64,000 nucleotides of DNA, from sequence record NZ_CP015284.1. One strand, written 5' to 3'. The DNA is from a plasmid. This document shows, one piece after another, positions 9,618-40,739 of this stretch (positions are counted from its first letter, which is position 1; each line of letters begins with the position of its first letter). Below the pieces are notes generated by a model. The model was given only the letters and a program-made list of their open reading frames with translations. It did no database searches and had not been told where the DNA came from. The position numbers were made by a program, and so were the translations under genes.

Positions 9618-10135
9618 TGTCTTTCTCCTTTAAAAATTGTTGTTGTAAAGTGACCTTGGAAAGCCTCGAACACCTGTTCGTAGACTTTCCTCCGTATGCC
9701 GGCAAATTAGAGTTGGGAACACCTCTTCCTCACCTCTAATCATCGAGATGTCGCCTTTCTTTTTGTCCAACTACCTAAACTCAAAACAAAAAAAGCATAA
9801 CAAAGAAGCCGGCAAGCCTTGTCTCAAAAAACAAGGATGCGCGTGCCTATGGCAAACCATAGGAAAAACTTCTCGTTATGCTCAGTTGCTAATAACGTTT
9901 GTTGTAGCCTTTCAAAGTAAGTAAAGGCAAAATTATCTCGTACCTGTTATAAGCGTCAAGCCCCTTCTTCTGTCTGATGGCTTAACTGATAGCTAAAAGC
10001 GAGTACGCTCCCTTTTAACCCTTTAAACATGGTATGCATGTCACTGGGACAGAACCAGTAATCGCATCTCCTCCTCCATGTTTCCTCTTTTCTCAAGTCA
10101 CGTGACTATGAGTTCACCGTTTGAGGTGGTGAAAT
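9618..10135 (-). promoter_or_regulatory. About 515-bp highly structured non-coding leader upstream of the leftward operon; inverted near-copy of 40225..40739
   Basis: The reverse complement of this region aligns base-for-base (roughly 90 percent, a few indels) with 40225..40739, including the RBS at its end. It carries many short stem-loops, the palindrome GTCACGTGAC and a conserved 8-codon uORF. Confidence 0.6.
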
Positions 10136-10260
10136 AGATATAAATAATAATATTTATATCTTTAGTATAGCAAACGCATGAAAAAATATCAACTTAAGAT
10201 TAAAGGTGACTTACAGTAAAATAAAAAAAACACCTAAAAGGTGCATGATATACATTTTAT

Positions 10261-10493
10261 GCTTTAGTCCCACGTCAATTAGAACAGTAACAAAACTTTG
10301 TAACTGGCGAGGTCCTATTTGCAACATTTTAGTGCCATATCAAATAGAACGGTAACAAAACTTCTAGGCAGCAATCATAGATATAATGTAAGTTTTAGTT
10401 CCATGTCAAATAGAACAGTAACAAAACCTTGTACTATAAAGGTTAAACTTCCTCTAAGTTTTAGTCCCATGTCAATTAGAACAGTAACAAAAC
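10261..10493. CRISPR. CRISPR-like mini-array: 4 repeats of 36 bp, 3 spacers of 29-30 bp. The repeat is of type II (GTTTTAG...CAAAAC) style and degenerate.
   Basis: Repeats at 10261, 10326, 10392 and 10458 (period 65-66 bp): gctttagtcccacgtcaattagaacagtaacaaaac / attttagtgccatatcaaatagaacggtaacaaaac / gttttagttccatgtcaaatagaacagtaacaaaac / gttttagtcccatgtcaattagaacagtaacaaaac. The spacers are unrelated to one another. Confidence 0.65.
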
Positions 10494-10653
10494 GACATGG
10501 ACCAGCTCCCGACCTTCTTGCCTTGGCTTCCGGTTAGGCTATCTGGTATTTACAAGGTTATTCATAATTACCTTGAAGGTTCCTAAATAAACCTTTTTAG
10601 TTATTATAACATATTTATCGTTTGAGGCAAGGAATCAAGCAAATAACCCTATA

Positions 10654-11946
10654 TCACTTATTCTTATGTTTAATCTTGTTCAGTTTAAGGTCTTTGAAAG
10701 AAAGTTTATTCTCTAAAATAGCCACAAATTCATATGGAGCATTAAACATAATTTCAAAGCCTTTTTGTTTACGCTGGTCAAACCAAGACATCTCTTCTGG
10801 GTTATAATCCTTACGGGATTGCAAGGATTTGAAGTCCTCTTGATAAAGAGTAAAGGTATCACCCAACATCAAGATCTGATTAGCAATCCGTCCAAAACGG
10901 TTCTTTCGTGCTTTTTTTACCTTATGCCAGATATAACGTTTTTGGTCTAGAAGTTTCTTATAGGCTGAGTCCTGCATCCATGCTCTCTTCCCTTTTTTCG
11001 GAACACCATTTTCATCGTAGTTGTCTGGGTTTAAGGCTCTACGCTTACTTTCTATAGCTCTATCCAAGTCCGCCAACCTTTTACTATACCCAAAATCATT
11101 GGAGAGATCATAAACAATAGTCTCATTATCACGCGCAGCAGTAATCGACATCTGCTCAACAGATAACTTGATTTCCACGTTTCCTTTATTTGGTAGCTCA
11201 TGGTCCAATCCATAAGGAACACCATCAAAGACTAATAAAATACTGTATTTCCAAATATTTCCCTTAACAAGAGTTCGCTTAAGAGCATATAACGCTAATT
11301 TTTGGAATTCTAGTGCATAGGCAACCTTAATCTCTTGTTCTCGGCGAAAAGCAAAAGGGATAAACAGCTTGTCGTTTCTGCCTTTCCCAGTCTCAAAGAA
11401 TACCCCTTCATCAGTCACGTTGTTATTGCATTTACGGTACCATAAAGTCGTAAAATTCGTTAAGCGACCAATTGATACATGGTTGCTACTTTCTCCTTGC
11501 TTACGACGCTGAAGATAGGCCCCTTTAACTGTCTGACTAAGAATTTCCATAGTAGACCAGTGGATTATCCCTTCTTCTGCATACCTTTCATACATAGCAG
11601 TTGCTTGTCCTAATTCTTTATATCGGATAAATTTACCACTATTAAGACCAAATCTATCATTTAAGGCTATCCAATCTGCTTTAAGTGTCGTCGAAAGCTC
11701 CTTATGAGTTTCCTTCATAGAGAGTTGCTTTGTCTTGTCTTTCTCTTTAGAGATAGCTTCCTTTAACTCTGCCAGCTCTTTAGTACGTAGAGACAAAGAC
11801 TTATATTCCTCTGAGCTAACACGACGATGTTCTTGGCAATTGATCCAATTTGTTACGGCTCGTTTTAACTTGTAGCCATATTTAAAACGTTTGGCTAGAA
11901 AATCATCATAACCTTTGGTATTCAAAGGGATTTCTAAAGTATACAC
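10654..11946 (-). CDS. TnpB/Cas12-like RuvC-fold protein that appears to lack the C-terminal zinc finger and RuvC-III (430 aa, GTG start)
   Basis: By-eye similarity to IS200/IS605 TnpB (sequence recalled from memory, so tentative). N-terminus YTLEIPLNTKGYDDFLAKRFKYGYKLKRAVTNWIN against the TnpB pattern rLyPt.eQ...L....g..r.vyN. Also SIGRLTNFTTLWY, a RuvC-I-like IVYDLSNDFGYS, a basic linker, and a RuvC-II-like LYQEDFKSL. Only about 55 residues follow, with no Cys and no RuvC-III. Confidence 0.45.
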   Translation of the reverse strand: MYTLEIPLNTKGYDDFLAKRFKYGYKLKRAVTNWINCQEHRRVSSEEYKSLSLRTKELAELKEAISKEKDKTKQLSMKETHKELSTTLKADWIALNDRFGLNSGKFIRYKELGQATAMYERYAEEGIIHWSTMEILSQTVKGAYLQRRKQGESSNHVSIGRLTNFTTLWYRKCNNNVTDEGVFFETGKGRNDKLFIPFAFRREQEIKVAYALEFQKLALYALKRTLVKGNIWKYSILLVFDGVPYGLDHELPNKGNVEIKLSVEQMSITAARDNETIVYDLSNDFGYSKRLADLDRAIESKRRALNPDNYDENGVPKKGKRAWMQDSAYKKLLDQKRYIWHKVKKARKNRFGRIANQILMLGDTFTLYQEDFKSLQSRKDYNPEEMSWFDQRKQKGFEIMFNAPYEFVAILENKLSFKDLKLNKIKHKNK

Positions 11947-39072: not shown

Positions 39073-39099
39073 AGAAACTCCTTTCAATCCATTATGTAC

Positions 39100-40050
39100 G
39101 ATACACTATGTATAACAAAACGATACATATTATTAACTATTTAAAGTATACCATATAGAAATCTAATAGCAAGTATTATGTAAGATATATCGTAAATAAT
39201 ACAATATACACTATGTATAGCTTATAATGGATTATTGATAATAAGCGTGTTACGCATTAGCTAATACATAGTGTATCGTTTACAATATACTATTTAAAAA
39301 GAAAGCATATGACATATCAAAACTAGACAAGAATAAAACACGATACATTATATAAAATAAACGATGTATCTTATAGATATATAAGATACATATGGTAATG
39401 ATAGATAGGATATATTACTATATTCAAGTTTCCTTCAAGCATTACACATTACACTATACATAACATCACTATATATAGTGTAGTGTAAAAAAGAAATTGC
39501 ACTTTTTTAGTGTACTATAGACGATGTAATATATATCGTTAAATGATATATTGCTAAGTATTATATAGTATACCTTTCATACACTCCTTTATTATAATAA
39601 AGGAGAATATTTTTATTACAACACGATACATAATACATTATGTAGTGTGAATAATATATAGCTTTTGTATTTATCGTATATAGTAGGTAATATACGATAC
39701 ATTATTATAGTGTACTATAGACGATGTAAGATATATTGTTAAATAATGTATTGCTAGGTATTATATCGTATATCTTTCATCCATTCCCTTAATATACTAA
39801 ATAAGAATAGTTGTATTATAATACGTTACACGATACATTATGTAATGTGAATATTGTATAGTACTATCTGTTATCGTATATAATAGATAATATAAGATAT
39901 ATATTGTACGATACATTAAAGAACTATATATGATTATGTTCTTATTGGGTTATAAGTTATATTTAAAATTAGTATAAATGTTGTTCTATGTTGTTTACGA
40001 TACAAGATACATAGTTTAACAATGTATCTTGTATTCCTTTATGATGTTTG
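39100..40050. repeat. AT-rich repeat array directly upstream of parA: two tandem about 190-bp units (39510..39690, 39700..39880) and at least 8 copies of ACGATACAT/ATGTATCGT. Candidate centromere/operator.
   Basis: Repeats read directly from the sequence. The same 9-mer also occurs next to the two attenuator hairpins (3372..3396, 42091..42108). Confidence 0.55.
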
Positions 40051-40224
40051 ACACTTCGCTTATTACGATTGGCGAACTATACATAATGTGTTGTAAACAT
40101 ATAGATTATGTATAGTATATAATGTAATGAAAAATAGTATATATAGTTATAATTTCGAATAACGATAAACTTGTAATGTTAGTAGCTCTTTGCTATACTA
40201 AAGTCATAAATAATTATATTTATA

Positions 40225-40739
40225 TTTTCACCACCTCAAATGGTGAACCTTTGGTCACGTGACTAAAGAAAAGAGAAGCATGGAGGAGGATATGTCATTA
40301 CTGGTTCTGTCCCAGCAATAGGCATACCATGTTTTATAATGGGTTAAAAGGGAGCGTACTCGCTTTTAGCTATCAGTTAAGTCATCAGACAGAAGAAGAG
40401 GCTTAACGCTTATAACAGGTACGAGAAATTGCTTTTCTGACTTTGAAAGGCTACAACAAACGTTATTAGCAACTAAGCATAACGAGAAGTTTATCCTATG
40501 GTTTGCCATAGGCACGCGCAACCTTGTTTTTTGAGACAAGGCTTGCCGGCTTCTTTGTTATGCTTTTTTTGTTTTGAGTTTGGGTAGACAGACAAAAAAG
40601 GGAGGCGACATCTCGATGATTAGAGGTGAGGAACAGGTGTTCCCAACTCTAACTTGTCGGCATACGGAGGAAGGGCTACGAATCAGTATTCGAGGCTTTC
40701 CAAGGTCACTTTACAACAACAATTTTTAAGGAGAAAAAA
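40225..40739 (+). promoter_or_regulatory. About 515-bp structured leader upstream of the rightward operon (inverted partner of 9618..10135)
   Basis: See the partner leader. Contains the palindrome ggtcacgtgacta and the uORF ATGTCATTACTGGTTCTGTCCCAGCAATAG preceded by ggaggagg. Confidence 0.6.

Follow-up and report, generated by a model that had tools for sequence, protein, structure and literature searches.

What does one long, folded and untranslated leader do when it stands twice on a plasmid, in opposite orientations, at the heads of two divergent operons? The question is raised by a 64,000-nt stretch of the plasmid record NZ_CP015284.1 (the window in what follows), whose source replicon is a Streptococcus salivarius-group megaplasmid. 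Here one copy of the leader precedes an operon that includes SSB (the left operon) and the other an operon that begins with a DUF3854 gene (the right operon). We propose, with moderate confidence, that the leader is a sense RNA acting in cis and that it regulates elongation through attenuation, processive antitermination or both. The inverted pair itself had been claimed in an earlier reading of the same letters (the original prediction) and is real: MAFFT pairs 40225-40739 with the reverse complement of 9618-10135 from one end to the other (522 columns), with a mean column identity of 94% and few indels of 1-4 nt. A repeat finder resolves the pair into five collinear inverted pieces of 86-96% identity, and the longer cassette, compared left against right, has a gap-aware identity of 88.3%. 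A repeat of more than 500 nt at ~90% identity within 64 kb is far above chance expectation. As to the bounds first given to the copies, the downstream end at the ribosome-binding site (RBS) stands, whereas the upstream limit has to be moved, because similarity reaches ~45 nt further, across the -10 region (TTTGCTATACT) and a palindrome rich in AT. Downstream, similarity stops right after the RBS AAGGAG, before the start codons at 9617 (minus strand) and 40740 (plus strand). The parts of the two cassettes are as follows.

10164..10192, minus strand: left promoter, -35 TTGATA, 17-nt spacer, extended -10 TGcTATACT (promoter scan).
40171..40199, plus strand: right promoter, -35 TTGTAA, 17-nt spacer, extended -10 TGcTATACT (promoter scan).
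9618..10160, minus strand: left leader, predicted 5' untranslated region (UTR) of ~540 nt, up to the RBS of the gene that opens the SSB operon.
40204..40739, plus strand: right leader, predicted 5' UTR of ~536 nt, up to the DUF3854 RBS.
10140..10157, unstranded: AT-rich palindrome ATAAATn6ATTTAT, at the start of the left leader.
40206..40223, unstranded: AT-rich palindrome ATAAATn6ATTTAT, at ~+1 to +25 of the right leader.
9783..9883, minus strand: central terminator-like module of the left leader.
40475..40575, plus strand: central module of the right leader, helices 11-13 of the consensus fold, almost invariant.
9618-9652, minus strand: CA-rich tail of the left leader.
40707..40739, plus strand: the same CA-rich tail (CACUUUACAACAACAA) with the Shine-Dalgarno sequence (SD) AAGGAG in the right leader, a conserved block that is unpaired in the consensus fold.

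Both promoters are of the canonical sigma-A type with an extended -10, and the -10 region is conserved in all copies. A terminator at 10230-10244 (minus strand) shields the left one from what lies upstream. Transcription would start, judging by promoter position, at the AT-rich palindrome, whose perfect matches in the window are limited to the two leader starts and whose dyad is preserved among copies by symmetric changes; it may serve as an operator through which both operons are repressed, or form a weak 5' hairpin. From there the leader runs through a 5' hairpin domain, the central module and a 3' domain of three hairpins into the CA-rich unstructured tail with the SD. The GC content of the leaders is 40-41%, against 35% for the plasmid. 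No open reading frame (ORF) of at least 60 amino acids (aa) overlaps either copy. Several candidate features inside the leader were rejected. The mini-ORF ATGGAGGAG, considered as a leader peptide, is prematurely stopped in many copies; the leader-coded ORFs of at least 25 aa are each broken in a good share of copies, and small ORFs are intact in just 0-61 of 87. An internal promoter of the left leader, TTGACG-16-GATAAT, is not conserved, its -35 being TTAACG in most copies and its -10 lacking in the right copy, and promoter scans gave no conserved antisense promoter common to both leaders. The segment CACUUUACAACAA might be read as resembling the rrn and lambda boxA.

How far does this leader extend beyond the window? 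By blastn (word size 11) it matches 8 of 72,556 PLSDB plasmids, all of them Streptococcus salivarius-group megaplasmids of 138-237 kb, pSsal-NU10 and pIKMIN-B501 among them, and each of the eight has exactly two matching places. An exact 28-mer scan of metagenome contigs added 115 loci. From three of the eight matching complete plasmids, two genome contigs and human metagenome contigs we assembled 107 full-length copies, 86-95% identical to the right copy and comprising 87 distinct sequences. The gene that follows is DUF3854 in 46 of the 107; an SSB-type operon follows in others, opening with SSB (27 copies), a 106-aa protein (27) or a 122-aa protein (3), and in the remaining 4 the first ORF is of another kind or cannot be called. 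Nine two-copy metagenome contigs, the window and the relatives L001 and L002 each have one copy of either type, in inverted orientation, and the core enclosed between the two copies measures 24.5-45 kb in other replicons. Close relatives of DUF3854 occur in Streptococcus only, the next being ~30% identical, from unrelated phyla and without the leader. Among 80 distant DUF3854 genome loci the leader was present just in two from Streptococcus (L119 and L120), and no divergent homologues for covariation were obtained. It was likewise found in no phage of IMG/VR (exact 30-mer) or INPHARED (blastn). This pattern of matches indicates an element that is kept across a single plasmid family and was not encountered elsewhere. 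The search of Rfam that the original prediction called for was made with Rfam 15 and returned no gathering-score match in the window and none at E <= 5 on the leader alone.

The next question is on which strand, and as which nucleic acid, the leader folds. We folded both strands, as had also been suggested at the outset. The sense RNA has a minimum free energy of -174.8 kcal/mol for the right leader and -183.6 kcal/mol for the left, with z = -8.25 in each case, compared with -138 kcal/mol and z = -5.1 for the antisense RNA. Sense is more stable than antisense in all 87 distinct copies (mean -172 versus -145.5 kcal/mol). The RNAalifold consensus consists of 121 pairs in 16 helices, in keeping with the many short stem-loops noticed earlier, and 99.8% of its cells are standard pairs; one-sided changes in helices are all wobble-compatible (C-G to U-G, A-U to G-U). 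Cells changed on both sides number 43, versus 12.6 +/- 2.6 in shuffles (0/500), and in controls with the pairing partner slid along the alignment pairing falls to 36-51%. True compensatory changes are confined to helix 16, a 3' hairpin, where for example C-G in 59 copies is replaced by U-A in 28. G-U makes up 12.8% of paired cells, and 46 of the 121 pairs are G-U in some copy; these conserved G-U pairs imply C-A mismatches on the opposite strand. Overall, the signal favours a sense-strand RNA. Long, non-coding and strongly structured leaders thus do stand before two divergent operons, as had been claimed, and the structure is kept in all related elements found: the leader is neither a promoter fragment devoid of conserved structure nor absent from relatives.

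These strand-specific results also bear on the original prediction's analogy with Frpo/ssi-type elements, in which folded single-stranded DNA (ssDNA) would provide a promoter or a site of priming on the strand being transferred and give early expression in the recipient. Such single-strand promoters of plasmid leading regions were reportedly described by Masai and Arai in 1997. The likeness lies in a structured non-coding region upstream of ssb and anti-defence-type plasmid genes, and F-like plasmids do have Frpo elements upstream of ssb (PMC11541004); moreover, the ssDNA folds of both strands beat shuffles (template strand z -5.3, sense strand z -7.2). The analogy nevertheless gives way at several points. 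A canonical double-strand promoter lies 5' of both copies, and the template-strand ssDNA fold does not rebuild its hexamers into duplex, leaving the -35 unpaired and the -10 in a small local hairpin only. The conserved fold draws on G-U pairs, each of which would turn into a C-A mismatch if the template strand were folded. Since copies and operons are inverted in every two-copy replicon, at most one of the two can be in template sense on a single transferred strand. At ~540 nt the leader also exceeds the 50-350 bp regions that define Frpo candidates (PMC11541004). Finally, the blastn comparison with the 72,556 plasmids, a collection presumed to hold F-like and ColIb-type plasmids, matched just the eight Streptococcus megaplasmids; the five reference Frpo sequences were not directly compared. 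We consider a single-strand promoter extremely improbable here.

If the leader acts as RNA, what might its most conserved part do? The central module has a 16-bp closing stem (AGCAUAACGAGAAG / CUUCUUUGUUAUGC) around two hairpins, which together form a three-way junction followed directly by U7GU4. Folded alone, the right copy has a free energy of -40.7 kcal/mol, and it occupies +272 to +372 of the leader. The module resembles an intrinsic terminator or attenuator whose hairpin, unusually, is branched. One could ask whether the leader mainly yields a small RNA of ~365 nt, trans-acting or a decoy, that ends at the central U-tract, with operon expression a by-product of read-through. The terminator-like module does lie two thirds of the way into the leader, and the 5' two thirds are independent hairpins with exposed conserved loops, such as the purine-rich AGACAGAAGAAG. 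However, the 3' third is conserved equally and holds the only compensatory changes, the copies are always placed exactly before an RBS, and a target was not identified; a small RNA as main product appears quite improbable to us.

Attenuation of a related kind is known from the pLS20 conjugation operon, whose 456-nt leader contains the zipper-type attenuator cATT (PMC13401043). Both systems would combine a long 5' leader before a long plasmid operon, a long imperfect stem with an intrinsic terminator, and control after initiation. In cATT, an upstream stem-loop is complementary to the terminator and lengthens a long stem, whereas the terminator-like stem of our leader is itself the branched long stem; the cATT leader precedes conAn1, and the leaders here precede other first genes. 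The cATT terminator lies 0-26 nt before the conAn1 SD, whereas the U-tract here ends at ~+372 of 536 nt, ~165 nt before the SD, and because of this distance we do not regard the leader as a zipper-type attenuator of the cATT kind. GAGAAG-like upstream motifs are potential pairing partners for the 3' side of the terminator stem (-14.4 vs -18.2 kcal/mol) but are not conserved, and no conserved competing antiterminator pairing was identified in the leader.

The argument for control of elongation also draws on a second sequence that the two operons share internally, and on further terminator-like hairpins in the left operon.

42085..42182, plus strand: second shared module of the right operon, with an ATCGTA repeat, an intrinsic-terminator hairpin with U5, an RBS and ATGACAA.
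3295..3390, minus strand: second shared module of the left operon, 98% identical to 42085-42182.
8417-8443, 7514-7535 and 6456-6477, minus strand: three further intergenic terminator-like hairpins of the left operon.

The hairpin of the second module has a free energy of -33.6 kcal/mol, and the module is conserved in L001-L003 and 62 loci. Where shuffled sequences have 5.5 +/- 2.1 terminator-like sites, a scan that covered the left operon counted 22. In each operon the second module has a -10-like hexamer (TATAGT or TACAAT) just 5' of it, and going by this arrangement of motifs the module might be a promoter-proximal attenuator in its own right. Because the two operons share both a leader and an internal terminator, a model of elongation control fits best. 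We envision the following sequence of events. Each cassette would comprise a sigma-A promoter, a start-site palindrome and a ~540-nt leader, the last acting in cis as a folded sense RNA, and the two inverted copies would put both divergent operons under one common control. The palindrome could be bound by a repressor. After initiation, the central three-way junction with U7GU4 would form a terminator-type gate, that is, an attenuator. Past this gate the leader, alone or with a factor, would carry RNA polymerase through the conserved intrinsic terminators of both operons, and the CA-rich unstructured tail with its strong SD would allow efficient translation of the first gene. Processive antitermination by the leader is plausible, and the conserved intrinsic terminators of both operons lend it indirect support.

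The same cassette could be read more simply, as a passive duplicated 5' UTR: a strong promoter and a long UTR whose 5' hairpins, CA-rich standby site and strong SD merely stabilise the mRNA or boost its translation, with no switch and no antitermination. Covariation is weak outside helix 16, the CA-rich tail and AAGGAG are among the best-conserved blocks, and the divergence of the leader (84-95%) is not lower than that of neighbouring coding DNA (94-96%), all of which would suit such a UTR. It leaves the conserved internal terminators to be explained, however, and it sits uneasily with a central module that is invariant and ends in a perfect U-tract, and with a 540-nt leader of z = -8.25 that 107 copies preserve in full, with indels limited to loops or linkers. 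We regard the passive UTR as possible but unlikely.

Several points weigh against control of elongation by the leader. Transcription start, termination and read-through are all predictions, and a branched three-way junction is an unusual terminator hairpin. Sequence diversity among the copies is low (84-95% identity), which is why compensatory covariation is restricted to helix 16 alone. The central module, being invariant, provides no structural information, and ~28 nt of it are invariant by construction in the metagenome set, having served as the search pattern. Conservation of the module is the same in the complete plasmids and in both genome contigs, which were found without that pattern. 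The structure was moreover scored on the same alignment from which it had been derived. The right operon holds a single internal terminator. A protein cofactor shared by the two operons was not found. The XRE-type HTH protein of the right operon is missing from some relatives; its gene is lacking in L002 and L003, and we rejected it as a universal repressor. Lastly, no type IV secretion system was identified in the window and the plasmids are typed 'non-mobilizable' (MOB-suite, PLSDB), a typing that may be an artefact. By their gene content both operons look like 'establishment' operons for DNA processing and anti-defence, and given the typing and the lack of an identified secretion system in the window, it is gene content alone that this label describes.

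Among known systems, the closest is EGeRS1 of the Bacillus plasmid pLS20, which occurs in several highly structured, non-coding copies of 420-750 bp that are 62-95% identical (Val-Calvo et al. 2021, PMC8708921). These lie immediately upstream of the RBS of putative establishment operons and, in their native orientation, block read-through; no sigma-A promoter was found within or upstream of them (PMC8708921). The leaders resemble them in their two ~540-nt copies, 84-94% identical, with z = -8.25 and ending at an operon RBS, and the predicted terminator-like module would be a counterpart of the read-through block. They differ in that EGeRS1 copies are all direct and ours inverted, in that TTGTAA/TTGATA-17-TGcTATACT is predicted directly 5' of both copies here, and in GC content (51% for EGeRS1 versus 38% for its plasmid; 40-41% versus 35% here). 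A search with the leader profile of pLS20 45-65 kb, which holds four EGeRS1 copies, gave no match at E <= 10 (nhmmer --max).

A further point of comparison is processive antitermination by RNA. The put and EAR antiterminators measure roughly 70 and 120 nt. That both are much smaller RNAs is stated in PMC8191782, which also describes the bipartite conAn system of Gram-positive conjugative plasmids, a combination of the ConAn1 protein with the conAn2 RNA. Like conAn, the leader is a structured RNA of several hundred nt that would act in cis near the start of a long operon with internal intrinsic terminators, and the latter trait is present: the shared module occurs in both operons, with three more terminator-like hairpins in the left. 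Yet conAn2 sits downstream of conAn1 and needs ConAn1 for its long range, whereas the leader RNA is the 5'-most element, and there is no common first gene here (DUF3854, SSB, the 106-aa or the 122-aa protein); the window proteins were not compared with ConAn1. Since the RNA comes first and no conAn1 gene lies upstream, we do not assign the leader to the conAn system. That attenuation and processive antitermination can serve one plasmid is illustrated by pLS20, which has both (PMC13401043, PMC8191782).

Could the inverted pair instead be chiefly a recombination substrate, a switch that flips the replication, partition and relaxase core against the rest of the plasmid? The original prediction had foreseen a flip of the core by recombination between the leaders, and here the record is mixed: both reciprocal junctions occur in a few metagenome contigs, but none in the eight complete plasmids. 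By junction context, 41 copies are of the parental left type and 39 of the parental right type; in three the SSB-type operon joins the 'right' core end and in four the DUF3854 operon joins the 'left' core end. Four of these seven have ~1 kb of unambiguous upstream match, namely L092 (a 46-kb contig) and L096, which join the DUF3854 operon to the 'left' core end, and L114 and L033, which join the SSB operon to the 'right' core end; the other three are weak. The leaders of L092, L096 and L034 are left-like in their 5' part and right-like in their 3' part, with different switch points. No column inside the leader tells left from right copies, whereas five columns of the promoter spacer do, which indicates that the copies have exchanged sequence. 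This exchange is not a frequent homogenisation, as copies of one plasmid (87.7% identity) resemble each other no more than copies of different plasmids do (87.0%), and we rejected concerted evolution of the two copies of a plasmid on the same figures, which also speak against a switch. The parental arrangement is, moreover, found in all eight complete plasmids and in the classifiable same-contig pairs, chimeric assembly across a ~100-nt invariant segment is possible, and recombination does not account for the strand-specific RNA signal or for the exact promoter and RBS fit. Inversion isomers of the core are plausible from the junctions; a switch as the chief role of the pair is, in our judgement, very improbable. 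If the core does flip, this would change which operon adjoins which core end, and possibly the polarity of transfer.

The core and the two operons contain the following genes and sites.

10193..40170, unstranded: core between the cassettes, with a Rep3 initiator, ParA with an AT-rich repeat field, a tyrosine recombinase, a Replic_Relax (MOB_L-like) relaxase candidate, a 2834-aa LRR surface protein and a nuclease.
1502..9617, minus strand: left operon, with two paralogous small proteins (PHROG 25846), SSB, a PD-(D/E)XK nuclease (DUF3799), an ERF recombinase, RadC/JAB, GNAT and unknowns.
1502-1531, minus strand: strong terminator closing the left operon.
40740..52948, plus strand: right operon, with DUF3854 (441 aa), an LPD1-domain protein, an XRE-type HTH protein, a VirB11/T2SSE-like ATPase, a PcfK-like protein, PcfJ, a 115-aa protein and a 1838-aa SNF2 helicase-methyltransferase.

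The gene counts first given for the operons were somewhat too high: instead of about 20 genes, the left operon has ~15 minus-strand ORFs before its strong terminator, and instead of about nine, the right operon has eight ORFs before an insertion of the IS3 family. The cargo between leader and SSB varies among relatives. The genes at 9297-9617 and 8916-9284 (both minus strand) are absent in 27 other cassette copies, where SSB directly follows the leader. Just past the terminator of the left operon, a 60-aa ORF (1255-1437, minus strand) matches Paratox (PF24313, E = 4.5e-25), a prophage inhibitor of streptococcal natural competence. The PcfK-like protein is annotated as 'AcrIIA9 family' in relatives. 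In relatives the interval from the DUF3854 gene to the internal terminator module includes a gene for a 'GTP pyrophosphokinase' (small alarmone synthetase-like), which is missing from the window.

L001, 40483-41055: 'GTP pyrophosphokinase' gene.
L002, 39968-40540: 'GTP pyrophosphokinase' gene.
L003, 40031-40603: 'GTP pyrophosphokinase' gene.

Downstream, the right operon is cut short by, or ends at, an IS3-family transposase pair (53058-54409), and a second, oppositely oriented copy of the insertion sequence gives 345-nt inverted repeats of 99% identity (54023-54367 and 58372-58716, within the region 53058-58779).

Within the core, the annotated genes from 18749 to 39087 are all on the minus strand. 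The protein with the Replic_Relax domain, a domain that occurs in the MOB_L relaxase of pLS20, has 422 aa (16595-17863, minus strand). An AT-rich field at 39050-40230 (23-25% GC), 5' of the ParA operon and ending at the right promoter, contains direct and inverted repeats of the ACGATACAT type together with two copies of a 162-nt unit spaced at 200 nt (39500-39661 and 39700-39861); the field is probably a partition centromere or an iteron field, and its ATCGTA motif recurs in the internal terminator modules. At the other end, between a 430-aa ORF (10654-11946, minus strand) and the terminator that precedes the left promoter, lies a CRISPR-like mini-array (10250-10499, minus strand) with four copies of a 36-nt repeat, GTTTTGTTACTGTTCTAATTGACATGGGACTAAAAC, which have type II-like ends and a spacing of 65-66 nt and are degenerate (66-83%). 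The mini-array had no match in phage records, and the 430-aa protein none in Pfam, NCBIfam, PADLOC, PHROGs or PDB sequences.

On balance, the leader most likely controls elongation of transcription; it fits no described RNA family, while the kind of arrangement has precedents. A bolder view would make it the founding example of a new class of large (~540 nt) RNA for antitermination or attenuation in cis that coordinates both operons, with the inverted pair also flipping the core; this we consider unlikely. The cassette is well defined and testable, if not surprising in kind, and its function is a prediction. The bacteriocin loci of oral probiotics in wide use, strain K12 among them, reside on S. 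salivarius megaplasmids, and a leader without an Rfam family offers a defined and testable handle on how the plasmids' genes for DNA processing and anti-defence are controlled. The paired internal terminator modules allow a straightforward test of antitermination. The inverted pair, for its part, is a natural substrate for large inversions, which matters for the assembly and typing of these plasmids. Control of elongation by the leader would widen beyond Bacillus the picture of long leader RNAs, attenuators and RNA antitermination acting on the operons of Gram-positive plasmids.

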